Assembly: GCA_965287045.1 (NCBI GenBank)
Contig: OZ336884.1
Coordinates: 16,306,001-16,370,000, forward strand
Length of the DNA stretch: 64,000 nucleotides
Source of the DNA: Carcharhinus amblyrhynchos
Taxonomy: Eukaryota
Direction of reading: 5' to 3'
Position numbers and translations under genes: made by a program
The notes under the pieces: generated by a model
What the model was told of the DNA's origin: nothing
What the model saw: only the letters and a program-made list of their open reading frames with translations
Databases searched by the model: none
Shown: one piece after another, positions 10,206 through 54,549 of the stretch
How positions within the stretch are numbered: the stretch's first letter is position 1
Layout of the letters: every line of letters begins with the position of its first letter

Positions 10206-11586
10206 TTTTTTTCATCTGTGTAACAGCATTACTAGCTGGTCCAGCATCTTTTGCTCATCTGGCCATTTTGAAGTTGGTGGGGACTAACCTTGAACCTGCT
10301 GCAGCCCATATGATGTGGAACATGGGCTGGTGCAAAAGTATTAGGCACTCGAGGCAAAGCATCAAACTTGCCAACTACCCCCCACACAATTTTGTGCATT
10401 ATAACAAAATTCTTTTAATGAGATTTATTTAACAAAGGAAAGAATATGATTGCACATGTAATACTGTACCTGTAACAATTACTAGATTTTATTCACAATT
10501 TGCAGTTAATATGGTATTTAACCATTACAAAAATGGACTATTATTTAATGTGGAATTTTGGGAAAGACTGCAATATGTATGTCAATTATATGGAGAAGTG
10601 TATCTGGACTATTCATTCCCACTGTCTGAAGCCTGTTTGTTTATTTTAGTAAATATTGATTCAGTATTTTGTTGCGCTCAGCAACTACTTAGTGGTTGTA
10701 CTAGCCCTGTATGTACAGTCTTTTAAAGGGAGTGAGTTCTAGTGATATGACTATATAGTTCCAAGTCGGGTGGTGGGTGACTTGCAACTTTGCAGGTGGT
10801 GGTATTCCTCAGCATCAGATCCCCAGAGAATGTGGGGTATTACTAAAGAAAGCACATTGAGCAGTGAATAAAATATACTAAATTGAAATGTGTGCAAATT
10901 GTGCTTTCATCTGGAAAGTGTTTGGTGCCTGGGATGGTGCTCAGATGGAAAGTAAAAGGGCAGATGTTGTGCACCTTCTGCTTGCCAGGCCCCCAGGTTG
11001 ATGGTTGGATCTGGTTACACCCAAAAAAGTTTTCAAAGTAGACAAAAAAATTGGGATTTAAAACATGTGCTCAGAAGAAAGTTCAAAGCCCATTAGAATC
11101 TTATGGCTAACAAAATAAATGTTCCAATAAAACAATTTACAATATGAATTAGGAGCAGGCAATTCAGCCCTTCAACCTGCTGTGCCATTCAATACAATCA
11201 TGGCTCATCTCCATTTCATCTTCATGCCCACTTCCCATAACCCTCTCCCCTCTATATTAAACTTATCTCATTACATCCACTGTAAAGTTTATTTATTAGT
11301 CACAAGTAAAGCTTACATTAACTCTGCAATGAAGTCACTGAAGCTCCCTTAGTTGTCATAGTCAGGTGCTTGGGTCAATGCACCTAACCAGCATGTCTTT
11401 CACTGCACTCTAGGGTAACCAAATACCACAGATTTGTGACCCTTTCCTGTTTTAAATATGCCACCCCTTGGTATGAAACAGTCACCTTTTTGGAATGCCC
11501 AGCAAAGGGAATTGTCTGCTCTGTCCATCCCCTTAACATCTTGTATACCTCCAGTAGATCTCCTCTTGTTCTTAATTCTAGTGAGT

Positions 11587-11951
11587 ACATAAGAAATAGG
11601 AGCAGGAGTAGGCCAACTAGCCCTTCGAGCCTGCCCCACCATTCAATAAGATCATGGCTGATCTGTCGTGGCTCAGTTCCACATTCCTGCCCTCTCCCCA
11701 TAACCCTTAATCCCCTTGCTTATCAAAAACCCATCAACCCACGTCTTAAAAATATTTAGCGAGGTATCCACCACTTCAACGGGCAGAGAATTCCAGAGAT
11801 TCACCACCCTTTGAGTGAAGAAGTTCCTCCTCAACTCCGTTCTAAACCGCGCCCCCCTTATCTTGAGGCTGTGCCCCCTAGTCCTACTATCCTTTCTGAG
11901 CAGAAGAGTCTCTCCACCTCTATCCTATCCATCCCATTCATCATCTTATAC
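11587..11951 (-). mobile_element. Young CR1 family A, 5'-truncated copy
   Basis: Reverse complement of ~22826-23195, with the ACATAAGAAATAGGAGCAGG tail end. Inserted into an older CR1 fragment. Confidence 0.9.
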
Positions 11952-17461: not shown

Positions 17462-19910
17462 AACACCATCCTGTGGTGACAAGCACCAGAACAAATGGAC
17501 TACAGACTCCAAAACTGAACCTTAAACTGCCATTTTCTGAAGCATCATTTGTCCAAATAGAATGCTTGCTTCTGTGTTTAATGGCTATGTCATAATGTCA
17601 CATTTCAAATTATTTAATCTCAATTGCTTTCACCAACATAAACAGCTGACAAAAAAGCATGTTCTAAGATTTTACCTGTTGACTGTGGAAATGATGTGGG
17701 AACAAAGTGGATCTTTTCTTTGACCATTCAAATTCAAATATGCTTTTTCACTATCTCATGATGTGTAATCTGTAACTTTTGGGATTTCCAAATGGCTCCA
17801 TTTTGTTAATGAAATTTAATAGAAAAATCAGTCTGCAGTCAGTTGTTCAGACTGTTTGACAATGGGGGGGATTGCTGAGTTGCTAAATGCCTGAATAGTG
17901 TTCTGCTTTTTGAGTCACAAGGTAATGGGCACAGTTAAAGTGATGACTGAAATATCTAACCTTCATCATCTTTTAGAATTTATCAATGTTTATGCCCATG
18001 TATTTTTACAAATTTGGTCCAGGTTTTTCTAGACTTCTCATTTTCCTTTTTATCAAGAACTTCTGAGCATGGTCTTCATAATTTAGCTCCCAATGACCCT
18101 TAAATATCCTACTGTCGTATCTTATACACAAAGGTGTTCACTAATATTTTCAGTTTGTCTCATCCTAAAGAGAGATGCATGTGTGCGCACACACACACTT
18201 ATTATTTATCATGCTTTTGCATTATACACTTTTTTCTACATTTTTTGGCTAATTTATCTACCTGATTTTAAAAAGTGGCTACAATGCTTAAATTCCAAGC
18301 TATTTCACAAATCAAAAGGATAGAGGCACTTATTCTCATGAGGGCTAGTTCACAAACTTGATCTGGAAACATTTTTAATTTGACCCATTGCATTTCCTTC
18401 AAGGAGGCCACACCTCACGAAATTGTGACCAATTAACCATTTATCAGGGAAAAGAATCACTTGAACCTACCAGTGGAATGTGTAAGAAGCTGTGCTTTTT
18501 TTGTATTTATTCCAAGTTGTCATAGAATTGCGAAATTTGATATTTGGTACACTTCAGTACTTCAGTTGTACTGTTGCTAGCCTATACTTGACTTGTTGGA
18601 CCAGTTTTGATATGAATTGAGTATTCAAGTGCTTAACTATAATTTAAACCACAGAATTGCCTTGTCTAACCAAAACAAATTAAATTGACTATAGACCCTC
18701 CCAGGCTTTGGGTTTTCATTCTGAACTTGGGTTTTGAGGTTTTTTTTTAAACACTTGAATCAGATCAGCAAATTGTGAATTCAAGTGCACGTGCCTGTGG
18801 TTTCTTCAAATGTTAAACCATAACCAAAGTTATCTTGTACTTGTTTTTACAGAGCCCTCCACTTCATGCCTGTTATAAATTAAGTCCATGTCTCCAGGAT
18901 GTTCCATGAATTAGTAAACATTTCAAACTATTTTGAATTTCCTCCATTTTAAAACTATCCAGAACAGGAACATTTCAGTTTGTGGCAAAATATTGCACAC
19001 TAAAACTATCATGATGATGTTTCAGCCTTGAGGATGGGGCACATGTAATGCAAAAACAGCCTCAATTGTTGCCTCAGTTGAATTAAGAGCTGTGAACTTC
19101 TAACTTCCTAATGGGCACAGATGCTCTGGGACAAATGGCAGTCTGAAAGAACCCCCTGACTGAGTAGGTGATTCCCAACAATTAATTGCCTATGTTGCAG
19201 TTTGATATTTTAGTTCTGCTCCCTGGAAGTCTAGGAAATTGAGTGATTAACTTGTTTTAGAATTTGAATGGGATTGACTTGATTTACTCTAGAGCAGTCA
19301 TGATGGGCTGCATAGCTTCCTCTTCTGCCACAATGATGCTATGACTCCTTGACTTCATTCCCAAGCTCCATGTTTAGCTAAAGTAAGAAAATGGGGGAGA
19401 AATTACCATGACTACCTAGAAAGATGGTGAAATTGCATTCAGATATATTGAGTGCAAAATGGTGCATCTGCAAATGTATCACTTTGTGTAATAGCAGGGC
19501 ACTCATTTGGCTTTCTTTTCTCCAAGGTTGAGAAGGGGCACATTACCATGATTTATGCAAAATGTCATATCAAAAGGCATTTAATTCTATGCAATGGAGT
19601 TCTTTTCCAAACAGGTATACTTACCACAGCTAGCTTGCTTTGTTCTAAAATCTGTCTACCGTGATGGTGTTAGGAAGGGAGCAGGACAGTATGGGGGATG
19701 ATGAGGCGCACAGCATAAACATTTTGGTATGAGCGTGATTTTCCTCTATGCATTTTATATACCAGCAGGCTATCCAAAACACTATTCTCCTAGTTGGCCT
19801 TTTGTTATCCATCACCTAATATCTCAAACTAAAGAGTTTGAGTAGTAATTGAGTTCTGGGGCTTCTTTTAATTACAAGAATACTGTGTACGTTTGTTTGG
19901 GGCATCTTAA

Positions 19911-20132
19911 CCTGAACCGTGTGCAGATGGGCGTAGGGTTGACAGGATTAAGGAAGTGAATGGGTGGCTCAGGGATTGGTGTGGGAGGAATGGGTTTGAA
20001 TTTATGGGGCATTGGCACCAGTATTGGGGTAGGTGGGACCTGTTCGGGAGGGATGGGGTTGGTCTGAACCGTGCTGGGACCAGAGTGCTGGCGAATAGAG
20101 TAAAGAGGACTGTAGACAGGGCTTTAAACTAA
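19911..20132 (+). CDS. CR1 ORF1 C-terminal fragment (SGNH esterase-like)
   Basis: Reads PEPCADGRRVDRIKEVNGWLRDWCGRNGFEFMGHWHQYWGRWDLFGRDGVGLNRAGTRVLANRVKRTVDRALN*, a typical CR1 ORF1 ending. Confidence 0.8.
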   Translation, partial: PEPCADGRRVDRIKEVNGWLRDWCGRNGFEFMGHWHQYWGRWDLFGRDGVGLNRAGTRVLANRVKRTVDRALN

Positions 20133-23108
20133 TTGGGGGGGGGGGAGGGTGCGAGGGTAGGTGATGTTACGAGGTCTAAAGTTAAGGAGAGTGTAAATGT
20201 AAAGGAAGAGGCCGAGGATGTCCCAATAATAGAGGGAGTAGGGGGCATGGGTATAGTTGGTGGCGTTGCGGCAAATAGGGTCCAGGTGAAGGCTGGGATG
20301 AAAGCACTTTATCTGAATGCACGAAGCATTCGGAATAAAGTGGATGAGCTGATGGCGCAGATCGACACAAATGGATACGATCTGGTGGCCATTACAGAGA
20401 CGTGGCTGCAGGGTGACAGGGACTGGGAGCTGAATGTACAGGGCTATCAAGTGTTTAGGAAGGATAGACAGGAGGGAAAAGGGGGGGGCGTAGCTCTGCT
20501 GATTAAGGATAGCATCACGGTGGTAGCAAGGGATGATATTGGAGCCAAGGAGCAGAGGGTGGAATCGTTGTGGGTGGAGATTAGGAACAGCAAAGGGAGG
20601 AAGACGCTGGTGGGTGTCGTCTATATGCCCCCGAATAATGATCTGGAGATGGGGCGGGCTGTTAACGCGCAAGTAAGTGCGGCGTGCAGGAATGGGACGG
20701 CCGTAGTTATGGGGGATTTCAATCTGCATATTGATTGGTCGACCCATGTTGGACGTGGGGGGCTCGAGGAAGAGTTCTTGGAATGCTGCCGGGATAGTTT
20801 CCTCGAACAGTGTGTGTTGGAGCCGACGAGGGAGCGAGCTATCTTGGATCTGGTGCTATGTAATGAAGCGGGTAGAATTAGGGACCTTGTGGTGAAGGAT
20901 CCTCTTGGGGAGAGTGATCATTGTATGGTGGAGTTTCTGGTGCAGATGGAGGAGGAGAAAGTGGGTTCCCGGACACGCGTCCTTTGTTTGAATAGAGGGA
21001 AATACGGTAGGATGAGAGAAGAATTGGCGAATGTGGACTGGGAGAGCGCGTTGGAGGGAGGGTCTGTTAAGGAGCAGTGGAGGATCTTTAAGGAGATCTT
21101 TCTTGGTGCTCAACGGAAATTTATTCCGATGGTCAAAAAGGATAGTAGGAGGAGAGGTAATAAGCCGTGGATAACAAAGGAGGTGAAGGAAAGTGTTAAA
21201 CTAAAAGCGGAGGAATTTAGAGTAGCTAAGAGTAGTGGGCGAGAAGAGGATTGGGAGAGGTTTAAATGTCAACAAAGATTGACAAAGAAGTTGATAAGGA
21301 AGGGTAGGAGAAACTATGAAGCTGGGCTCGCGCTTAATATAAAAAAGGATAGCAAGAGTTTTTATAAATATATAAAAAGGAAGAGGCTGGCTAGGGTGAA
21401 TGTTGGTCCTTTAGAGGATGAGAAAGGGGACCTAGTGGTAGGGGATGGGGATATGGCTAAGGTATTGAATAACTTTTTTGTTTCTGTCTTCACGGAGGAG
21501 GACGTGAATAATTTGCCGGGTGTTAGCGATAGAAAGGTGGTAGGACTGGAGGGTCTTAATGACATTACTGTTACTAGAAAGGCGGTGCTCGACAGACTGG
21601 AGGGGCTGATTGTGGACAAGTCCCCAGGACCGGATGGAATGCATCCGAGGGTTCTGAAAGAAATGGCGGAGGTGATAGTGGATGCCTTGGTGGTTATTTT
21701 CCAAACGTCGCTGGATTCCGGGGAAGTGCCGGATGATTGGAAAACGGCTAATGTTACGCCGTTGTTTAAGAAGGGTGCCAGGCAAAAGGCGGGGAATTAT
21801 AGGCCGGTTAGTTTAACATCTGTGGTAGGTAAAATGTTAGAATCTGTCATTAAGGAGGAAATTGCGAGGCATCTTGAAGGGAATTGCTTGATAGAGCAGA
21901 TGCAGCACGGTTTCATTAAAGGGAAGTCGTGTCTGACAAATTTACTGGAGTTCTATGAGGATGTGTCTAGGGCGGTGGATAGAGGAGAGCCGGTGGATGT
22001 GGTCTTTCTAGATTTTCAGAAAGCGTTTGACAAAGTGCCTCACAAGAGGTTATTGCAGAAGGTCGAGGGACATGGAGTTGGGGGTAGGGTGTTAGCGTGG
22101 ATAGAGGATTGGTTGTCAAATAGGAGACAGAGAGTGGGGGTCAACGGGTGCTATTCGGATTGGCGGATGGTGACTAGTGGAGTGCCCCAGGGGTCGGTGC
22201 TGGGGCCTCAGCTTTTTACCATTTATATAGATGATCTGGAGGAGGGAACCGAGTGTAGAGTGTCGAAATTTGCTGATGACACCAAGATTGGGGGAACGGC
22301 AAATTGTGCGGAGGGTGTGGAGAGTCTGCAGAAGGATCTAGATAGGCTGGGTGAATGGGCCAGGAAATGGCAAATGGAATTTAATGTTGGCAAGTGTGAG
22401 GTGGTCCACTTTGGTAGGAAAAATGGTAGGAAGGACTATTACTTACGAGGCGAAAAACTGCAGCAGGCGACGGTACAGAGGGACCTCGGGGTCCTTGTGC
22501 ATGAGTCGCAAAAACCCAGCTTGCAGGTGCAGCAGGTGGTCAGGAAGGCGAATGGGATGCTGGCCTTCATAGCGAAGGGGATTGAATATAAAAGTAGGGA
22601 GGTCTTGCTGCAGCTGTATAGGGCATTGGTGAGGCCGCAACTGGAGTACTGTGTGCATTTTTGGGCGCCGCACCTGCGCAAAGATATTTTGGCCTTGGAG
22701 GGAGTGCAGAGGAGGTTTACTAGGCTGATACCGGAGTTGAGGGGGTTGAGCTATGAGGAGAGGCTGAATAAACTGGGCTTGTACTCGTTGGAGTTTAGAA
22801 GAATGAGAGGAGATCTCATTGAGACGTATAAGATGATGAATGGGATGGATAGGATAGAGGTGGAAAGACTCTTCCCGCTCAAAAAAGACAATAGGACTAG
22901 GGGGCACAGCCTCAAGATAAAAGGGGGACGGTTTAGAACGGAGTTGAGGAGGAACTTCTTCACTCAAAGGGTGGTGAATCTCTGGAATTCTCTGCCCGTT
23001 GAAGTGGTGGAGGCTGCCTCGCTAAATATTTTTAAGACGCGGGTTGATGGGTTTTTGATAGGAGAGGGGATTAAGGGTTATGGGGAGAGGGCGGGAAAGT
23101 GGAACTGA
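20133..23108 (+). CDS. CR1 ORF2: APE endonuclease plus reverse transcriptase (family A)
   Basis: 991 codons without a stop. Endonuclease motifs NARS, ITETW, GDFN, SDH; RT motifs KSPGPDG, NYRPVSL, GVPQGSVLGP, FADD. First ATG at 20247. Confidence 0.95.
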   Translation: MGGGEGARVGDVTRSKVKESVNVKEEAEDVPIIEGVGGMGIVGGVAANRVQVKAGMKALYLNARSIRNKVDELMAQIDTNGYDLVAITETWLQGDRDWELNVQGYQVFRKDRQEGKGGGVALLIKDSITVVARDDIGAKEQRVESLWVEIRNSKGRKTLVGVVYMPPNNDLEMGRAVNAQVSAACRNGTAVVMGDFNLHIDWSTHVGRGGLEEEFLECCRDSFLEQCVLEPTRERAILDLVLCNEAGRIRDLVVKDPLGESDHCMVEFLVQMEEEKVGSRTRVLCLNRGKYGRMREELANVDWESALEGGSVKEQWRIFKEIFLGAQRKFIPMVKKDSRRRGNKPWITKEVKESVKLKAEEFRVAKSSGREEDWERFKCQQRLTKKLIRKGRRNYEAGLALNIKKDSKSFYKYIKRKRLARVNVGPLEDEKGDLVVGDGDMAKVLNNFFVSVFTEEDVNNLPGVSDRKVVGLEGLNDITVTRKAVLDRLEGLIVDKSPGPDGMHPRVLKEMAEVIVDALVVIFQTSLDSGEVPDDWKTANVTPLFKKGARQKAGNYRPVSLTSVVGKMLESVIKEEIARHLEGNCLIEQMQHGFIKGKSCLTNLLEFYEDVSRAVDRGEPVDVVFLDFQKAFDKVPHKRLLQKVEGHGVGGRVLAWIEDWLSNRRQRVGVNGCYSDWRMVTSGVPQGSVLGPQLFTIYIDDLEEGTECRVSKFADDTKIGGTANCAEGVESLQKDLDRLGEWARKWQMEFNVGKCEVVHFGRKNGRKDYYLRGEKLQQATVQRDLGVLVHESQKPSLQVQQVVRKANGMLAFIAKGIEYKSREVLLQLYRALVRPQLEYCVHFWAPHLRKDILALEGVQRRFTRLIPELRGLSYEERLNKLGLYSLEFRRMRGDLIETYKMMNGMDRIEVERLFPLKKDNRTRGHSLKIKGGRFRTELRRNFFTQRVVNLWNSLPVEVVEAASLNIFKTRVDGFLIGEGIKGYGERAGKWN

Positions 23109-26100
23109 GCAGCGACAGATCAGCCATGATCTTATTGAATGGCGGGGCAGGCTCGAAGGGCTGGATGGCCTACTCCTGCTCCTATTTCTTATGTTCTTAT
23201 GTTCTTAACAAATACATCTATAGAATGGGAATAGAGGGATATGGTCCCTGGAAGAGTGGGGGTTTGGCAGAGTTAGGCACCATGGTTGGTGCAGGCTTGG
23301 AGAGCTGAAGCACCTGTTCTGGTGCTGTAATTTTCTTACATTAATGTCTGTCTCTAGACAAGATAAGTGTTGTAGCAATGTTGGTTTCCCAAGCTCTGAT
23401 CATATGGCATCAATATCAAAGCATGTATCTGTGCAGCAAACAGTGATAGTCTCTGAGCTGTTGTGTTGCCCAGCATCTGATCCAGTTTAAGGGTACACTA
23501 ACAATGTGAAGTACTAGGCTACCTGCTAAACAACCAAAAGCAGCCCTTGTATGACCCATTGTGTGTATATCCCTTGTTGGACAAGTTGGAAGATGGAGAT
23601 GTTGGGGTGAGGGAATTTAAAAAATGACCAAAAGGTTGCACTTTTAATTGCATAAGTGAGATTTAAGTATTGGTGATAGATCAATAGAAAAATAATTTGA
23701 TTCTTTTGCTACAGAAAACCAGCTTCTGAGGTTGATGCCAAAATTTCAAACTGAACAAGCTAACTTTTTTTGGAGACACAGCAAGACTGGGCATACCAAG
23801 TGAATGAACTACCTGCAATATGGGCAAAATTAAATGTGACAAATACAAGATTTGCCTGTTTTGGTAAAACCTATGTATTGTTAAATCAAAATTTAAACAG
23901 AAAAAGTACAGTATACGTATGCAGCCTTCATATCAACACCAGTCTGCTTCAGAATTCTCTTAAAGCACTCCCTGCATATACTTGAATAAAGGTGATCCTA
24001 ATCTATTGAGTCTCATGTGATTAGTGTAAGAAATCAGTGCTAACAGAACATGTGGTCTACTTGAAGATTCTATCAGACTTCCTTAATGATACCTATACTT
24101 TGGTCATATGTTTCCTTTGAACTTTCCCTTGTCGAATGAACATGAAATACTTTTCTTTCAGTGATCTAGACTTGTAGGAGTGCTACCTCAGTGCTTACCC
24201 TTCACCCTATCAACCTCTCGTGACTTGCTAGTCAATAATACACTGTCAATCCTGTGCACATGGTCCTGACATCCCTGCTTGGTAACTGAAGAGGTAGCAT
24301 CTTTTCACCTGATCTGATAGATTCCATCCACTTGTTGAGCAGCGATTCTAAGCTTTAAACATTCATTGATCCGTGATGGGTCAGAGGTTGGAGGCCAGTG
24401 GCTGATCAGTGGAACATGATGGTCCCTTCTAATTGTTGGAGATAGCACCTGTGCTCTGCATCAATCAAGTTGGTTTACTGTTCTTAACAACACAGGCGAG
24501 AGCAGTTATTGCTTTCCACTACAGAGCAGATACTCCAGATTCACTTACAACTTGCACCATTGGCTAGCAGTAAAGTGAGAATACACCGGTTGAAAGCTAA
24601 TTCTCTTCATGTACTAGATAAATTTCATCATTCTGTTGGGAGAAGAACAAAGTAGCCTAAATATCAGTTAACTTATCACAGCTGCCTGAAATGTGTATGC
24701 ACACTATTTCAGCAATTTAAAATTTTATTCTCTTAAATGTGAACCTCTGTTTTAGAAATCCACAGTGTTATACTTTTGAAATTTCTAGATATATTGCAGT
24801 ATATCCACACTCTGACTTTTAAACTAATAATGTGAACTGTGTTGCATTTAAGCTGTTTGGGAGGATTTAATGAACAAATCCTTTTTGCGTTCTACAAATC
24901 AGAAGGATACTGAAGAAAATATGGTGCAAGCAGGTATACTTTTTTTGGTCAGGCTTTTGATCACATTTTCTCCCTCACACAATTGAACTCTAAGCATTGC
25001 AGCAAACTACATTCCTATTTGCTAATTTGTAATCGGAGATGCAATTGCAATAGTAGCCACATCTGCTCCCAGAGAGAAACATGTTCTCAGCAGGTGCATG
25101 CTCTATTTGCATGTGTCAGATGGCTCTTCATCCTTTCTGCGATTAGGATTTAAAAATCCAAATGCAGCATAGAATTTAATGGAATGAAAAGAGAAAATGC
25201 TGAAAATACACAGCAGGGTTAGACAGCATCTGTGAAAAGGAATTAAATGGATTGTTTTAATTCCAGAAATTTTTTTAGACTTAAAATCTAATCAATGTTT
25301 TAAACTCTGCTTTTAAGAAACCTAACATAGTCATTGTTTTGTGCATTAGTCCAGATTTAAGCACTGCCTGTTCACAGGCATCCCACCCATCAAACCTTGA
25401 ATATCTTGTTTCTTAATGAATACTGTTCTAAGACCTTTAGATTGTGTATTTACTTCTAGTTTGCAAAATGGTCAAGATTTCATATTTTAGTTAATGTTTT
25501 CTGAAGCAGTTGTGGCTTTGAAATTCTTTCCTACAATGCAACCTTTATTAATCCAATGAGACAAACTAGTTCTTGCAATGTATTGGCTGCTGCTACTATT
25601 TGATTGCAATGCAGCATTTGTAACATGCATAATTGGAATATCTAGTGAATTTCACTAGGGCTTTGTAAATTTACAACTATACACACTGAAATGCATGCTT
25701 GGTTGAAATAGAACAGTGAAATTGACCAAGAGCGCAGCGCGTGTTGCAAATCAATAATTGCATGTGTTTGAGCTCAGCCAGGCCAGATGGCTTTTTTATT
25801 TTTAAATTATAAATGGTGCATTTGCAAGGAAATGCTATTGTTTTACAACCAACGGTTAGAACATGGAGATGGTGTGGACAGTTGGGATAGAAATTAACTG
25901 CCTGAAAGGAGATTGTCTAATTTGAGTATTTGCTCTGAGCTGACTGCGTAAAGCTTTGCATTTAACACCAGATGTCGGTTTAGCAGAAACTCTGGTGATT
26001 CACGAGCTTCCCTTGACCTCTGGCAGATGTGCTCCTACCACCCCTTTCACCAGTCTACTAGGGATCAGCTGCATTGTCATTTGATCGCTCCTGGTCTCAG

Positions 26101-28325: not shown

Positions 28326-28889
28326 CAGCTGGAGTACTGTGTGCAGTTTTGGGCGCCGCACCTGCGCAAAGATATTTTGGCCTTGGAGGGAGTGCAGAGG
28401 AGGTTTACTAGGCTGATACCGGAGTTGAGGGGGTTGAGCTATGAGGAGAGGCTGAATAAACTGGGCTTGTACTCGTTAGAGTTTAGAAGAATGAGGGGAG
28501 ATCTCATTGAGACGTATAAGATGATGAATGGGATGGACAGGATAGAGGTGGAAAGACTCTTCCCGCTCAAAAAAGACAGTAGGACTAGGGGGCACAGCCT
28601 CAAGATAAAAGGGGGGCGGTTTAGAACGGAGTTGAGGAGGAACTTCTTCAATCAAAGGGTGGTGAATCCCTGGAATTCTCTGCCCGTTGAAGTGGTGGAG
28701 GCTGCCTCGCTAAATATATTTAAGACACGGGTTGATGGGTTTTTGATAGGAGAGGGGATTAAGGGTTATGGGGAGAGGGCGGGAAAGTGGAACTGAGCAG
28801 CGACAGATCAGCCATGATCTTATTGAATGGCGGGGCAGGCTCGAAGGGCTGGATGGCCTACTCCTGCTCCTATTTCTTATGTTCTTATG
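28326..28889 (+). mobile_element. Young CR1 family A, 5'-truncated copy
   Basis: Near-identical to 22638-23200. GAATC flanks both sides. Confidence 0.92.
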
Positions 28890-30796: not shown

Positions 30797-32360
30797 GCAT
30801 CCGAGGGTTCTGAAAGAAATGGCGAAGGTGATAGTGGATGCCTTGGTGGTTATTTTCCAAACATCGCTGGATTCCGGGGATGTGCCGGAAGATTGGAAAA
30901 CGGCTAATGTTACGCCATTGTTTAAGAAGGGTGGCAGGCAAAAGGCAGGGAATTATAGGCCGGTTGGTTTAACGTCTGTTGTAGGTAAAATGTTAGAATC
31001 CGTCATCAAGGAGGAAATAACGAGGCATCTTGAGGGGAATTGCTTGATAGAGCAGACGCAGCACAGTTTCATTAAAGGGAAGTCGTGTCTGACAAATTTA
31101 CTGGAGTTCTATGAGGATGTGTCTAGGGCGGTGGATAGAGGAGAGCTGGTGGATGTGGTCTTTCTTGATTTTCAGAAGGCGTTCGACAAGGTACCTCACA
31201 AGAGGTTATTGCAGAAGGTCAGGGGACATGGAGTTGGGGGTAGGGTGTTAGCGTGGATAGAGGATTGGTTGTCAAATAGGAGGCAGAGAGTGGGGGTCAA
31301 TGGGTGTTATTTGGATTGGCGGATGGTGACTAGTGGAGTGCCCCAGGGGTTGGTGCTGGGGCCTTAGCTATTTACCATTTATATAGATGATCTGGAGGAG
31401 GGAACCGAGTGTGTGGTGTCGAAATTTGCTGATGACACCAAGATTGGGGGAACGGCAAATTGCGCGGAGGGTGTGGAGAGTCTACAGAAGGATCTAGATA
31501 GGCTGGGCGAATGGGCCAGGAACTGGCAAATGGAATTTAATGTTGGCAAGTGCGAGGTGGTCCACTTTGGTAGGAATAATGGTAGGAAGGATTATTACTT
31601 ACGTGGCGAAAAACTGCAGCAGGCGACGGTGCAGAGGGACCTCAGGGTCCTTGTGCATGAGTCGCAAAAACCCAGCCTGCAGGTACAGCAGGTGGTCAGG
31701 AAGGCTAATGGGATGCTGGCCTTCATAGCGAGGGGGATTGAATATAAAAGTAGGGAGGTCTTGCTGCGGCTGTATAGGGCATTGGTGAGGCCGCAGCTGG
31801 AGTACTGTGTGCAGTTTTGGTCGCCGTACTTACGCAAGGATATTTTGGCCTTGGAGGGAGTGCAGAGGAGGTTTACTAGGCTGATGCCGGAGTTGAAGGG
31901 GTTGAGCTATGAGGAGAGGCTGAATAAACTAGGCTTGTACTCGTTAGAGTTTAGAAGAATGAGGGGAGATCTCATTGAGACATATAAGATGATGAATGGG
32001 ATGGATAGGATAGAGGTGGAGAGACTCTTCCCGCTCAGAAAGGACAGTAGGACTTGGGGGCACAGCCTCAAGATAAAGGGGGGGCGGTTTAGAACGGAGT
32101 TGAGGAAGAACTTCTTCACTCAAAGGGTGGTGAATCTCTGGAATTCTCTGCCCGTTGAAGTGGTGGAGGCTGCCTCGCTAAATATTTTTAAGACGCGGGT
32201 TGATGGGTTTTTGATAAGAGAGGGAATTAAGGGTTATGGGGAGAGGGCGGGAATGTGGAACTGAGTCACGACAGATCAGCCATGATCTTATTGAATGGCA
32301 GGGCAGGCTCGAAGGGCTAGATGGCCTACTCCTGCTCCTATTTCTTATGTTCTTATGTTC
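30797..32360 (+). mobile_element. Young CR1 family A, 5'-truncated; RT with one premature stop
   Basis: ORFs 30819-31367 and 31413-32264 are the same frame, broken only by CAG>TAG at 31365. (TATGTTCT)n tail. Confidence 0.93.
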
Positions 32361-32580
32361 TCTCTTCTAACTGAACTGCCAGCAGCTACTGCTGCAGTCC
32401 TGGGGGTTGTGGGGGGGAGCTCCTATTGCTCTGAGAGCCTACCTACCCTCTGGCCACTAATTGGCCAATTTGAGATGGGGGGAGGAGAAAAGAAAATCAC
32501 TGGGTGACTATTGGTCGTGCAGTTTTGAGTTCCATTTGATCCTGATTGAAAAGTCAAAATACTGCACCCTGATCCACTGA

Positions 32581-34233: not shown

Positions 34234-35853
34234 ACTGCAATCTGAATTGCATTTTGCGTGCCTACTGCCTAAATTTAGTTCGGTTTGTTAATAAACCCAA
34301 TAGATGTCTAATTAAACCTTTCGTCCTTCAGCGTTATTGGCCTGCTACGGAGAATGGGCCCTATCCCATTTATTGCTATATCAAATTCCAATTTGATAAA
34401 GAGAATATTCACAGGATTTGACTATTTTGAATGCATGAGATTTCCTGTTATATGAAGCTGAAATGAATGTCTTATTGGATGCTGATGGAGAAGGATGCTT
34501 CCGGTCATTAGGAACATATTGTTCTTGATAACCATGCATGTTCAAGTTTTATTGCCAAATGTAATGATTCACAGTGGAAAAGACAAGTAAAAAATTGAGA
34601 TATCGAATGGATACTATTGGTTTTTCTCCCATTTTGTTTGTGTTCTGCTCCCATAGCTGCTCTGTGTTATTGGCCTCCCCCAGAGGTCATTCAGTTCTGC
34701 GGCCAAATTTTTGTTGCAAAGAGGCTTCCACTCTATAGCTGAAATATTATCAACCGAGTACCAGCTGTACCCTCTTGTCAATCATTAAAAGCTCAACATT
34801 TTTGTAATTCTGAATGATAACAGCAAATAAGTTTCACACTTCTTTACAATTTTCTGTCAGCTCCTTGTGATGTCAGATCTAACATCTGCCATTGCCTCTG
34901 TACTGTTGTTTTGTGTCGTTATTTAACACGAAATGTTGGGAGGACATATAATCGTTTTTTTTTTCTTTTGGTCATCTTTCTTATTTCTCTTCAACCATCC
35001 CCTTTTAAAATTTTGTGACGGCTGAAAGTTAATTTGTTATTTCCTAAAGCTTGTATTGACCTCTGTTTCCAGATTTTTTGTTTTAAACGCAGGTTTTTAA
35101 ACATTTCCTACTTATGAAGGAAATATGGTGGAATGGAGTTTGAAAGCATAAACTTGAGCTGTTCTAATCATTGGCGTGAAATACGATTAACACTGGGATG
35201 GAGAGAATGAATTGAGCCTGTTCAGACTCTTTGTTTCAGATGAGGGGCTCAAATCCATTTGCAACTGCAGTGAACTTAAATGTGAATATCATCATAAGTC
35301 GTATCGAGGGGTGACAAACTAAACCAACAGAAAATTTAGACCTTCAGCCATATTAGTCTTGCACTAATTTCCTCGGTAAACCTCCTCCCAAGATGATAAC
35401 AGTCAAATCGTGCCAGGTGGAGAAGCTTTAGTTGGGGGGGCGGGGGGTGGGAGAGAAGGAGTGTCGTCACCTTTCAACCAAGTTTCAGTCCAAATCATAA
35501 CGTTAATATCATTGAACCACATTTAGCTTGTGGATTATAAAGGCTTTGTTTGTGAGTGAATGAACGTTCCAGAAGTGTAGCAGTGAGACCTGATTATAGT
35601 GGCAGAATCTATGGGGAGGAAATTGGTAGATGACCCCAAAGCAGTAAAGCTGGGTGAGAAGGAGGATAGTAGGGTGGAGCGGTGTGGTTACTGCTCATAA
35701 GGCAACAGTGAATACCTTGATTGATTCTTCAGATTCTGCCAAAAGAGGATTGCAATAACCTTATCTAGGAGGGAAATGAGCAGAGATTTCAGACAGGGAG
35801 ACACTTGATGATGAATTGGTATTAAGACAATTCATTAAACAGATGCTATGCTG

Positions 35854-36114
35854 ATAAGAACATAAGAACATAAGGAATAGGAGCAGGAGTAGGCCATCTA
35901 ACCCCTCGAGCCTGCCCCGCCATTCAATAAGATCATGGCTGATCTGAAGTGGATCAGTTCCACTTTCACACTTTCTTCCCATAACCCTTAATTCCCTTGT
36001 CTGTCAAAAACCTATCTACCCGTGACTTAAATATATTCAGCGAGGTAGCCTCCACCACTTCAACGGGCAGAGAATTCCAGAGATTCATCACCCTTTGAGT
36101 GAAGAAGTTCCTCC
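35854..36114 (-). mobile_element. CR1 family A (or close subfamily) short 3' copy
   Basis: (AGAACATA)n tail plus the reverse complement of the ORF2 end and 3'UTR. Confidence 0.85.
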
Positions 36115-37193
36115 AATCAAGATCAAGAGAAGGTAGTCAATACTCTAAGTCAGGTAGTTCTTGCTTTCCGCTGACTCATGCGATTTTTTTTCACCTTCTT
36201 TCTCTCGCTTGCGATCATGAGCCCTGAACCATAGTTGTGACCCAAACATAAACAACCCATCCATACATGTTAACTCAGGCATTTGCAGGCATTACCCATG
36301 CATCAACAGTTAACCCTCTGTCAACCAAGATGTTTAAAGTGCACTCAGATCTTGCACGGAGCAGTTGGCAGAAGTATTCATAAACATCTTCAACCTCTCT
36401 TTACAACCTTCTGAGGTCCCTTCAAGAAGACGACCATCATCTTGATACCTAAGAAAAACCAAGAAGCATCCCTTAATAACTGGCTTTGACATCCATCATT
36501 ATGAGGTACTTCAAAAGGTTGGTCATGGCACGAATCAATTCCAGCATCCCGGACTACCTGGATCCACTACAGTTTGCCTACTGCCGCAACTGGTCCACAG
36601 CAGACACCATCTCCCTGGCCCTGTACTCAACCCTGGAACACCTAGATAACACCTATGTCAGACTCCTAATTATTGACTACAGCTGAGCCTTCAACACCAT
36701 TATTCCTACAAAGCTCATCTCCAAAACCCGTGGCCTGGGCCTTGGTACCTGTCTCTGTGACTGGATCCTGAATTTCCTAACTCTCAGATCATAATCAGTA
36801 AGGATAGGCAACTACACCTCCATGATCATCCTCAACATCGGTGCCCCACGAGACTATGTTCTCAGCCCCCTACTATACTCCTTATACACCTATGACTCTG
36901 CAGCCAAATTCCCCTCCAATTAGATTTTCAAGTTTGTTGATGACACCACAATAGTGGGTCGGATCTCAAACAATAATGAGACAGAGTACAGGAATGAAAT
37001 AGAAAATCTGGTGAACTGGTGTGGGAATAATAGTCTCTCCCTCAATGTCAACAAAATGAAGGAGATTGTTATCAACTTCAGGAAGCGTAAAGGAGAACAT
37101 GCCCTGTCTACATCAATGGGGATGAAGTAGAAAGGGTCAAGGGCTTCAAGTTTTTAGGTGTCCAGATCACCAACAACTTGTCTTGGTCCCCAC

Positions 37194-40100
37194 ATCTTGG
37201 CGGGAAGACTGGCTAAGGCTACCGGGGGGACTTTAAACTAGAAAGGATGGGGGGAGGGAACTGTGATGGGGAAACTGGGACGGAGGAGGTTCGCTCCCAG
37301 GTAGGGGAGGACCGCAGGCAGTATGGGAGGGAGGTTAGACAGGCGGTGGAGATGGGAAATGCCCAGACTGAGGGGCTGAAGTGTATATATTTTAATGCAA
37401 GGAGTATAGTGAATAAGGTAGATGAGCTTAGGGCGTGGATAGCTGTTTGGGATTGTGATGTGGTGGCCATTACGGAGACTTGGATGTCTCAGGGACAGGA
37501 CTGGGCACTTCAGGTGCCAGGCTTCAGGTGCTTCAGGAAGGACAGGGAGGGTGGCAGAAGGGGTGGTGGAGTGGCACTGTTGATCAGGGATAGTGTCATG
37601 GCTACAGAGAAAGAGGATGTCGTGGAGGGATTGTCTACAGAATCTCTGTGGGTGGAAGTTAGGAACAGCAAAGGGTCAAAAACTTTGCTGGGTGTATTCT
37701 ATAGGCCGCCCAATAGTGACAGGGAAGTTGAAGTGCAAATAGGGAAACAGATTCTGGAGAGATGTTTTAATAACAGAGTTGTCGTGATGGGAGACTTCAA
37801 TTTCCCAAACATCGACTGGAATATCCCTAGGGTAAGGGGTATAGATGGGGAGGAGTTTGTTAGGTGTGTTCAGGAAGGTTTCCTGACGCAGTATGTGGAC
37901 AAGCCTACGAGGGGAGAGGCTGTACTTGACCTGGTACTGGCGAATGAACCAGGGCAGGTGATGGATCTTTCGGTAGGTGAGCATCTTGGAAATGGTGACC
38001 ATAATTCTATCTCCTTCACAATTGCGTTGGAACGAGATAGGATCAGGCAGGCTAGGAAGGTGTTTGTCTGGGGTAAGGGGAGATACGAAGAAGTCAGGAA
38101 GTTACTTGGACAAATAAACTGGAAGGAGGCGTTCTTAGGGAAAAGTACCGAAGGAAGGTGGCAGATATTCAAGGAATGTGTGTCTGGAGCTCTGAATGAC
38201 AACGTTCCGATGAGACGAGGGGGTTTTGGTGGGTCGAGGGAACCATGGTGCACAAAGGAAGTGTTGAACCTAGTCAGGAAGAAAAGGAAGGTGTACAAGA
38301 GGTTCAGGGAATTAGGAGATGTTAAAGATCTTGAGGAGTATAAGGACTGTAGGAGGGAACTTAAAAGAGAAATTAGGAGAGCCAGAAGGGGTCATGAGAA
38401 GACCTTGGCGGGTAAGATTAAGGAGAATCCCAAGGCCTTCTATAAATATGTGAAAGGTAAAAGGATAAGAAGAGAAGGGATAGGACCTATAAAAGGTGAG
38501 GGGGGAAAGGTTTGTGTGGAACCAGAAGAAATGGCGGAGGTGCTTAACGAGTACTTCGCCTCAGTATTCACAGTGGAAGCCGATCTGGGAGATTTTGTTA
38601 TGGATTTGCAGCAGATGGAAAGGATTGAGTACGTGAATATTAAGGAGGAGGATGTGTTGGAACTTTTGAATTCTATCAAGGTAGATAAGTCGCCGGGACC
38701 AGATGGGATGTACCCCAGGATACTGTGGGAGGCGAGGGAAGAGATTGCAGAGCCCCTGGCGATGATCTTTGCGTCGTCAATGGAGACGGGAGAGGTTCCA
38801 GAGGATTGGAGGATTGCGGATGTAGTTCCTATTTTCAAGAAAGGGAACAGAGATAGCCCGGGAAATTACCGACCGGTGAGTCTGACCTCAGTGGTTGGTA
38901 AGCTGATGGAGAGGCTTCTGAGGGACAAGATTTACGAACATTTGGAGAGGTTTGACATGATCAGGAATAGTCAGCATGGATTTGTCAAGGGCAGGTCGTG
39001 CCTTACAAGCCTAGTTGAGTTCTTCGATAATGTGACTGAACACATTGACGAAGGAAGTGCCGTGGACGTAGTGTACATGGACTTCAGCAAGGCGTTTGAT
39101 AAGGTCCCCCATGCAAGACTTCTTGAGAAGGTGAGAGGGCATGGGATCCAAGGGCCTTTGGCCTTGTGGATCCAGAACTGGCTTGCCTGCAGAAGGCAGA
39201 GAGTGGTTGTGGATGGGTCTTTTTCTGAATGGAGGTCAGTCACCAGCGGAGTGCCTCAAGGATCTGTTCTGGGACCCTTGTTGTTTGTCATTTTCATAAA
39301 TGACCTGGATGAGGAAGTGGAGGGATGGGTAAGTAAGTTCGCTGATGACACGAAGGTCGGTGGTGTTGTGGATGATCTGGAAGGATGGCAAAAGTTGCAG
39401 CAGGACATAGATAGGATGCAGGACTGGGCGGAGAAGTGGCAGATGGACTTCAACGCGGATAAATGTGTAGTCGTCCATTTTGGCAGAACCAACGGGATGA
39501 ACGAGTACACTATCAAGGGCAGAAGTCTGAGTAGTGTTGAGGAGCAGAAGGATCTTGGGGTCCGGGTCCACAGGACTCTTAAATCGGCCTCGCAGGTGGA
39601 GGAGGTGGTCAAGAAGGCGTATGGTGTACTGGCCTTCATTAATCGAGGGATTGAGTTTAGGAGTCGGGAGGTAATGCTGCAACTTTATAAGACCTTTGTC
39701 AGGCCTCATTTAGAGTATTGTGTGCAGTTCTGGTCGCCTCACTATAGGAAAGATGTAGAAGCTATTGAAAGGGTACAGAGGAGATTTACAAGGATGTTGC
39801 CTGGACTGGGAGGCATGCCTTATGAAGTTAGGTTGAGGGAGCTGGGACTCTTTTCCCTGGAGAGTCGAAGGTTGAGAGGCGACCTGATAGAAGTTTACAA
39901 AATGTTGAGAGGAATAGATAGGGTGGACTCTCAGAGGCTATTTCCCCGGGTTGAAATGGTCGCTACGAGAGGACACAGATTTAAGGTGCGGGGAGGGAGG
40001 TTCAGAAGTGATGTTAGGGGTAAGTTTTTCACTCAGAGGGTGGTGAGTGAATGGAATCGGCTGCCGTCAGTGGTGGTGGAGGCGAACTCGCTGGGGTCTT

Positions 40101-40248
40101 TTAAAAGACTCCTGGATGAGTATATGGGGTTTAATGAGATTGAGGGTTATAGATAGGTCTGTAGGTTGGTAGGTGATGATGTGATCGGCGCAACTTGTGG
40201 GCCGAAGGGCCTGTTTGTGCTGTAGTGTCCTATGTTCTATGTTCTATG
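37194..40248 (+). mobile_element. Young CR1 LINE family B, truncated near the ORF1 end, with (TATGTTC)n tail
   Basis: ORF1 end ILAGRLAKATGGTLN*, complete ORF2, 3' hairpin GGGCCGAAGGGCCT, 7-mer tail. Confidence 0.95.
37247..40156 (+). CDS. CR1 ORF2: APE endonuclease plus reverse transcriptase (family B)
   Basis: 969 aa open frame with NARS, ITETW, YRPP, GDFN, GDH, KSPGPDG, GVPQGSVLGP and FADD. Clearly diverged from family A. Confidence 0.95.
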   Translation: MGGGNCDGETGTEEVRSQVGEDRRQYGREVRQAVEMGNAQTEGLKCIYFNARSIVNKVDELRAWIAVWDCDVVAITETWMSQGQDWALQVPGFRCFRKDREGGRRGGGVALLIRDSVMATEKEDVVEGLSTESLWVEVRNSKGSKTLLGVFYRPPNSDREVEVQIGKQILERCFNNRVVVMGDFNFPNIDWNIPRVRGIDGEEFVRCVQEGFLTQYVDKPTRGEAVLDLVLANEPGQVMDLSVGEHLGNGDHNSISFTIALERDRIRQARKVFVWGKGRYEEVRKLLGQINWKEAFLGKSTEGRWQIFKECVSGALNDNVPMRRGGFGGSREPWCTKEVLNLVRKKRKVYKRFRELGDVKDLEEYKDCRRELKREIRRARRGHEKTLAGKIKENPKAFYKYVKGKRIRREGIGPIKGEGGKVCVEPEEMAEVLNEYFASVFTVEADLGDFVMDLQQMERIEYVNIKEEDVLELLNSIKVDKSPGPDGMYPRILWEAREEIAEPLAMIFASSMETGEVPEDWRIADVVPIFKKGNRDSPGNYRPVSLTSVVGKLMERLLRDKIYEHLERFDMIRNSQHGFVKGRSCLTSLVEFFDNVTEHIDEGSAVDVVYMDFSKAFDKVPHARLLEKVRGHGIQGPLALWIQNWLACRRQRVVVDGSFSEWRSVTSGVPQGSVLGPLLFVIFINDLDEEVEGWVSKFADDTKVGGVVDDLEGWQKLQQDIDRMQDWAEKWQMDFNADKCVVVHFGRTNGMNEYTIKGRSLSSVEEQKDLGVRVHRTLKSASQVEEVVKKAYGVLAFINRGIEFRSREVMLQLYKTFVRPHLEYCVQFWSPHYRKDVEAIERVQRRFTRMLPGLGGMPYEVRLRELGLFSLESRRLRGDLIEVYKMLRGIDRVDSQRLFPRVEMVATRGHRFKVRGGRFRSDVRGKFFTQRVVSEWNRLPSVVVEANSLGSFKRLLDEYMGFNEIEGYR

Positions 40249-53827: not shown

Positions 53828-54549
53828 TTGTGCATGAGTCGCAAAAACCCAGCTTGCAGGTGCAGCAGGTGGTCAGGAAGGCGAATGGGATGCTGGCCTT
53901 CATAGCGAGGGGGATTGAATATAAAAGTAGGGAGGTCTTGCTGCAGCTGTATAGGGCATTGGTGAGGCCGCAGCTGGAGTACTGGAGTACTGTGTGCAGT
54001 TTTGGGCGCCGCACCTGCGCAAGGATATTTTGGCCCTGGAGGGAGTGCAGAGGAGGTTTACTAGGCTGATACCGGAGTTGAGGGGGTTGAGCTATGAGGA
54101 GAGGCTGAATAAACTAGGCTTGTACTCGTTAGAGTTTAGAAGAATGAGGGGAGATCTCATTGAGACGTATAAGATGATGAATGGGATGGATAGGATAGAG
54201 GTGGAGAGACTCTTCCCGCTCAAAAAAGACAGTAGGACTAGGGGGCACAGCCTCAAGATAAAGGGGAGGCGGTTTAGAACGGAGTTGAGGAGGAACTTCT
54301 TCACTCAAAGGGTGGTGAATCTCTGGAATTCTCTGCCCGTTGAAGTGGTGGAGGCTGCCTCGCTAAATATTTTTAAGAAGCGGGTTGATGGGTTCTTGAT
54401 AAAAGAGGGGATTAAGGGTTATGGGGAGAGGGCGGGAAAGTGGAACTGAGCCACGACAGATCAGCCATGATCTTATTGAATGGCGGGGCGGGCTCGAAGG
54501 GCTAGATGGCCTACTCCTGCTCCTATTTCTTATGTTCTTATGTTCTTAT
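53828..54549 (+). mobile_element. Young CR1 family A, 5'-truncated, with an 8-bp frameshifting duplication
   Basis: Near-identical to 22495-23206. CTGGAGTA duplicated at 53974-53989. Confidence 0.92.

Follow-up and report, generated by a model that had tools for sequence, protein, structure and literature searches.

We analysed a 64,000-nucleotide (nt) window of the Carcharhinus amblyrhynchos genome (assembly GCA_965287045.1, contig OZ336884.1, positions 16,306,001 to 16,370,000), in which a slippery heptamer, a stop codon and a run of 11 guanines had been flagged. The flagged site is the junction between open reading frames 1 and 2 (ORF1 and ORF2) of a 5'-truncated CR1 long interspersed nuclear element (LINE) of the esterase type. 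This copy, a member of what we call family A, occupies positions 19911 to 23206 of the plus strand, on which all features lie unless stated otherwise. Its 5' limit was placed by the loose ends of other copies at 19910/19911, and a likely 7-nt target-site duplication was read from the sequence (5' copy at 19905 to 19911, 3' copy at 23203 to 23209). It is approximately 98.2 to 99.0% identical to eight young family A copies over the 1.35 kb compared. Since the element begins at about 19911, the promoter and the ORF1 start codon are gone. The ORF1 remnant consists of the last 73 codons (19911 to 20132), which encode the end of an SGNH/GDSL esterase-like domain and the C-terminus ALN-stop, and is 100% identical to ORF1 of the full-length copy L062. 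ORF2 has 991 open codons (20133 to 23108) comprising a leader, an endonuclease (about 20313 to 20921) and a reverse transcriptase (about 21774 to 22430). Domain models PF03372, PF14529 and PF00078 all score over the cut-off, identifying an apurinic/apyrimidinic-type (APE) endonuclease and a reverse transcriptase. The 3' tail is made of 8-nt tandem repeats (about 23186 to 23206) without poly(A), which fits an esterase-type CR1 LINE.

Full-length family A ORF1 contains a Cys motif and a GDSL-like domain. The match to PF13472 was under the curated cut-off for family A (E value 3e-5) and over it for family B, and the named homologues of ORF1 are SGNH proteins, mostly from sharks, rays and birds. 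The position of the esterase His reads DGVGLN in family A (window 20050-20070; L062); the His is also missing in the bird homologues, and the terminal ALN is kept in all. In its Cys motif and GDSL/SGNH-like ORF1, APE and reverse transcriptase ORF2, tandem-repeat tail and 5' truncation, the element resembles the canonical vertebrate CR1 with an esterase ORF1 (PMC13343379).

At the junction itself, the heptamer TTTAAAC (20123 to 20129) is phased T TTA AAC with ORF1 and adjoined by the ORF1 stop TAA (20130 to 20132), which is TAG or TGA in other lineages. After two Ts, and thus 5 nt past the heptamer, comes a G11-A-G3 tract (20135 to 20149, with G11 at 20135-20145) that is a predicted G-quadruplex. 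The original prediction had placed the heptamer, the stop and the G tract, as well as an ORF2 in frame 0 and a -1 frame ending at TGA 20162, and each coordinate was confirmed. The -1 frame in this copy reads FKLIGGGGGCEGR up to that TGA and is therefore not open from the heptamer into ORF2, unlike in modal copies. Relative to the family, the G tract is one base over the mode and the usual leading A is missing, and ORF2 lies in frame 0 instead of the -1 frame of the family A mode. It had further been claimed that ORF2 has no ATG until 20247. This holds for the flagged copy, whose first ORF2 ATG is at 20247 to 20249, but not for its relatives: the 20247 ATG was found in 0 of the 29 closest copies, all 29 of which have GTG (G at 20247 also in 2,343 of 2,654 reads of run X24), and is present in some older family A copies. 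A further ATG, at the first residue of an endonuclease strand (MKALYLNARS; 20298 to 20300), is near-universal in family A and replaced by Leu in families B, C and E.

A copy of a divergent CR1 family, B, has its junction at 37232 to 37260, with the heptamer at 37232-37238, a TAG stop and a G-rich tract, and its ORF2 (37217 to 40156) is in the -1 frame. The claim that heptamer, stop and G-rich tract are common to families A and B was thus borne out at both junctions. This copy is seemingly nested in an older, distant LINE fragment (window ~36300-37190 and from 40252, with a 23% reverse transcriptase match at 36480-37094). The junction 10-mer was matched twice in the AT-rich window against 0.44 matches expected, and at least two matches occurred in 8 of 100 shuffles. 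Because this count is weak alone, the case rests on the place of the heptamer at the end of ORF1 in many lineages.

The heptamer is kept at the nucleotide level across lineages, beyond what protein coding requires. We used a motif-independent sample of 1 Mb in 100 blocks, a non-random choice taken partly beside the window and partly from repeat-dense regions near earlier hits, and located ORF1 ends with queries lacking their last three residues. TTTAAAC was present at 21 of 23 ORF1 ends, 17 times exactly at the projected place and 4 times within 2 nt. The other two were an end with TTTAAAT 11 nt off and a deletion chimera. Among the motif-bearing ends for which an endonuclease was located (21), ORF2 was in the -1 frame in 16, in +1 in 3 and in 0 in 2. 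We also compared 13 representatives, which fall into about four related groups and so do not stand for 13 independent events. The terminal Leu is TTA and the terminal Asn is AAC in 13/13, and the preceding codon, which encodes A, T, G or D, always has T as its third base, while the stop is TAA in six, TAG in five and TGA in two. At control codons 20 positions upstream, a conserved Leu is encoded by four different codons and an Asn is divided 6/6, and TTA accounts for only 7/94 and 4/74 of the Leu codons in ORF2. Of 53 ORF1 homologues, whose hosts range from sharks to ducks, 44 have LN as their C-terminus.

In the supplement of PMC13343379, 16 of 23 matches of a 9-mer stood at CR1 ORF1 ends as judged by eye, in crocodilians, bowfin, frog, coelacanth, chimaera, rays and sharks (species taken from abbreviations). 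This search was circular, with the motif as the query, and covered the first 400 characters per cell, too short for a frame check. Three further observations concern the distribution of the motif. Two dogfish CR1 consensus 5' ends also bear the heptamer and a stop; two LN-ending CR1 ORF1 homologues (P0020 and P0028) come from records of a bacterium and a flatworm, where they may be host contamination; and, in family A (L005, L010 and others), the 5' region some 1.25 kb upstream of the junction holds a cluster of repeated TTTAAA-containing words.

The length of the spacer, the stretch occupied by G11 in the flagged copy, sets the frame of ORF2. According to the original prediction, a run of 10 or 13 Gs would join the -1 frame to ORF2, a mode of either length in family A would support -1 frameshifting, and a mode of 11, or frame 0 or +1 in intact young copies, would speak against it. 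Family A junctions were taken as the 3,905 matches to one pattern in the 2.9-Gb genome; the pattern requires the heptamer, so these counts are silent on copies without it. The spacer was 10 nt, with ORF2 in -1, in 1,989 (51%) and 11 nt, as in the flagged copy, in 379 (10%). Among the first 100 matches listed, spacers of 10, 9, 11 and 8 nt numbered 49, 23, 11 and 8, with 9 of other lengths. The mode thus joins the -1 frame to ORF2 as anticipated, but its composition is not that foreseen: the usual 10-nt spacer is A plus G9 or an interrupted variant, and G10 occurred in 4 of the 100 first-listed ten-base spacers. Among the 29 copies closest to the flagged one, collected with a query omitting the G-run, ORF2 was in -1 in 16, in +1 in 7 and in 0 in 6; of 11 young copies whose flanking 300 and 400 codons contain no stop, 8 were in -1, and intact young copies therefore did not favour frame 0 or +1. 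An initial genome query that included G11 had returned 18/30 copies with an 11-nt spacer and was dropped from the frame counts because of its selection bias toward that length.

The same frame was found in the other CR1 families, which were queried downstream of the G-tract. In family B, 7 of 30 loci gave no ORF1 match, and ORF2 was in -1 in 21 of the other 23; the count was 27/29 for family C, 22/27 for family E and 26/30 for a set selected by the Pfam esterase model. Modal leaders of the four families measure 92, 104, 137 and 182 nt, all 2 mod 3, and in the modal copy of each, ORF2 is open in -1 from the heptamer on. The first ORF2 Met of family C lies 21 codons into the endonuclease in 26/29 copies, and that of family E at least 43 codons in (27/27 copies). 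Both are past the N-A-R-S motif, whose Asn we take, from APE enzymes, to be the first catalytic Asn. Families C and E accordingly have no AUG ahead of this Asn, and part of family B likewise lacks an early AUG.

Two family B copies are natural fused single copies, in which a one-base insertion joins ORF1 and ORF2 in one frame: L103 (G000:C12 near 384 kb), which additionally has no stop and a 1,172-codon open frame, and L105 (C10 near 73.57 Mb). The 5' truncation points of L262 and L312 fall in or right at the G-tract or junction, which might reflect stalling of the reverse transcriptase.

The flagged copy itself is an ordinary dead, promoterless insertion that points to a probably real family-wide -1 frameshift signal. 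Judging from these sequence comparisons, we consider it likely (approximately 80%) that programmed -1 frameshifting at the junction produces an ORF1-ORF2 fusion in intact elements. The site has the X XXY YYZ form of -1 heptamers, in phase with ORF1, and a review counts U_UUA_AAC with the heptamers on which mammalian ribosomes shift most readily (PMC5009743). On U UUA AAC, directly ahead of the ORF1 stop, a fraction of the ribosomes, perhaps a few percent, would move back by one base, while most would stop at once. The minor product would be an ORF1-ORF2 fusion carrying the endonuclease and reverse transcriptase of ORF2. Stimulation of the shift is predicted for two elements, the stop codon next to the heptamer and the G-rich tract 5-20 nt downstream.

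For the tract, the 25 nt past the heptamer are among the highest-scoring 0.1-2.1% of G4Hunter windows within the surrounding 2 kb in 6/6 lineage representatives, and a G-quadruplex (G4) 5-8 nt behind U_UUA_AAC gave up to ~7% shifting in reporters (PMC3919603). The stimulator is uncertain, since the canonical three-tier G4 pattern is present in just 2/6 representatives and a conserved hairpin was looked for in the six and not seen. It may equally be a G-quadruplex or a protein-binding G-motif. Long-range partners were also considered. Base pairing between junction and 3' tail found no support, since shuffled junctions paired as well in 48% (family A) and 96% (family B) of cases. A search for a C-rich partner of the G-tract found none at a shared position, and the best matches in families C and E fell outside the truncated elements. 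ORF1 of L062 contains a C-rich stretch with which the G-tract can pair (-28.7 kcal/mol), located about 740 nt upstream of the junction; family B has no counterpart at that position.

Several observations weigh against the frameshift reading. About half of the family A junctions (1,916/3,905) have a spacer other than 10 nt, G-only spacers peak at 8-9 nt and not at 10, and to these are added the relatedness of the 13 representatives and the incomplete G4 and hairpin evidence described above. The remainder concern start codons and at the same time favour a different explanation, termination followed by re-initiation at an AUG or near-cognate -1 codon just past the ORF1 stop, with ORF2 protein (ORF2p) made free. 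The AUG at the endonuclease start is nearly always present in family A. Of the 29 closest, young family A copies, 11 have an AUG 2 nt past the stop, in the ORF2 frame if the spacer is 10 nt, as do 6 of the 100 first-listed ten-base spacers genome-wide; young family B has one 5 nt past the stop; and L180 and 2/29 family C copies have a TAATG stop-start overlap. Where the stop is TAA or TGA, ATT or ATA is often found as the -1 codon that overlaps it. Translation of L1 ORF2 is reportedly AUG-independent. SART1 re-initiates at UAAUG (PMC10275272). Because family A has downstream AUGs, re-initiation stays a rival, but we think it unlikely. It leaves the invariant TTA AAC and its preceding T unexplained while the stop codon changes; the overlapping codon in TAG lineages is GAA or GTA, neither of them start-like; and part of family B, as well as C and E, amplified without an early AUG. 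A conserved AUG at or next to the ORF1 stop was found in some sublineages only, and most copies of A, C and E lack it. Re-initiation may nevertheless operate in some lineages or alongside the shift.

The heptamer could also be kept for another constraint, such as a C-terminal xLN protein motif or an RNA or DNA signal, with ORF2 expressed by internal initiation or from a separate transcript. The conserved LN residues of the ORF1 homologues and the similar TTTAAA words in the family A 5' region fit such an explanation, which we consider very unlikely: a protein constraint would allow synonymous codons, which are found at other Leu and Asn positions and never at the heptamer, and a fixed -1 phase over leaders of differing length is not predicted by it.

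The original prediction had offered three accounts of the G11 run, namely a homopolymer slip or assembly error, a switch in which run length controls ORF2, and frame-0 readthrough of the TAA. Of these, the first fared best. G11 is likely the product of homopolymer slippage (in reverse transcription, replication or sequencing) together with loss of the leading A, its 11-nt spacer being a per-copy deviation from the 10-nt mode. As a control we chose a G8 run in the endonuclease coding region (20481 to 20488), since any source element must keep its frame. In the same copies, with one duplicate locus dropped, the control was in frame in 19/28 and the junction in 16/29 (Fisher p=0.42), and this resemblance in spread indicates slippage and not a switch. 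In the families whose runs are G6-G7, 81-93% of copies are in the -1 frame, and run length varies far less than in family A. In a tree of 58 copies built with the spacer removed, spacers without the leading A were scattered and formed no clade. The repeated origin of G-only family A spacers on the tree (L031-L090) is perhaps a signature of reverse-transcription slippage at the G-tract. Illumina reads of run X24 were pooled over all copies; their most frequent indel relative to G11 was one base fewer (984 reads, depth 4,375). No listed read piece from runs X1, X4, X7 and X24 spans both unique flank and the G-run, so assembly error is neither shown nor excluded. Copies with a possible compensated frameshift (a longer G-run plus a 31-nt deletion) numbered just two genome-wide and were uninformative.

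A programmed switch or readthrough would find some support in the frame-0 spacer of the flagged copy and of the other junctions with 11-nt spacers, and in the 1.5% readthrough caused by G4 structures in a reporter (PMC3919603); readthrough of the flagged copy is formally possible, given transcription and entry in the frame of ORF1. Both accounts are nonetheless barely credible. The control run is about as variable as the supposed switch and families with shorter runs barely vary, while in the modal 10-nt form frame 0 meets a TGA nine codons past the TAA, so that readthrough cannot serve family A. The flagged copy, moreover, has lost its 5' end.

The frameshift proposed here has close parallels in viruses. 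In IBV-type coronaviruses (U_UUA_AAC) and in Rous sarcoma virus gag-pol, the heptamer is identical and in phase, the upstream ORF ends right behind it and the polymerase ORF is in -1 (PMC5009743). CR1 differs from these coronaviral and retroviral sites in being a non-LTR element (one that lacks long terminal repeats, LTRs) with a G-rich tract and without a predicted pseudoknot or conserved hairpin, and its shift is a predicted one. The junction also resembles reporters in which a G4 stimulates -1 shifting, with the identical heptamer and G-tracts starting 5-10 nt downstream (PMC3919603, PMC12710887). Those constructs are engineered, unlike the CR1 junction with its partial fit to the canonical G4. 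A natural use of G4-stimulated frameshifting was not known as of a 2016 review (PMC5009743, in the sections available).

SART1 and L1 share with CR1 a bicistronic LINE RNA in which ORF2 is reached from ORF1, and some CR1 lineages have an AUG at or near the stop. L1 is said to make free ORF2p by re-initiation, which would set it apart from a CR1 fusion. SART1 does so too (PMC10275272). The way in which the second ORF of LINEs is translated has long been a question, and the checked cases have been explained by re-initiation. Programmed frameshifting as such is a familiar mechanism of viruses and LTR elements. The junction signal is undescribed in the available text of PMC13343379, though visible in its consensus sequences, and the words 'frameshift', 'slippery' and 'reinitiation' are absent from its main text. 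A CR1 frameshift was not found in the accessible portions of the literature searched (including PMC13343379, PMC4316615, PMC11835228, PMC4255032, PMC3905857, PMC5006619, PMC8535693 and PMC5009743); a prior mention is possible, for example in the 1997 chicken and turtle CR1 papers, which were outside the search. A TRE5-A precedent was not confirmed in the available part of PMC5006619.

CR1 elements as a group are the dominant retrotransposons of most vertebrates (PMC13343379). A Gag-Pol-like fusion, if true, would fix the ratio of ORF1 protein (ORF1p) to ORF2p and tether the enzyme to ORF1p multimers, and annotations that begin ORF2 at the first AUG would cut off the endonuclease active site. 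If the stimulator is a G-quadruplex, CR1 would provide an example from nature of productive frameshifting driven by a G4. The broader proposal, that CR1 LINEs of vertebrates express their reverse transcriptase in the manner of retroviruses by a -1 fusion, at a site retained across lineages as far apart as cartilaginous fish, birds and crocodilians and with an RNA G-quadruplex as stimulator, is tentative and in this full form rather doubtful. The junction cassette is approximately 60 nt long, so the claim can be tested in a standard reporter.

The window also contains further 5'-truncated family A-like fragments, at 28326-28889, 30797-32361 and 53828-54548 on the plus strand and at 11584-11951 and 35852-36114 on the minus strand, which are 89-98% identical to the flagged copy.

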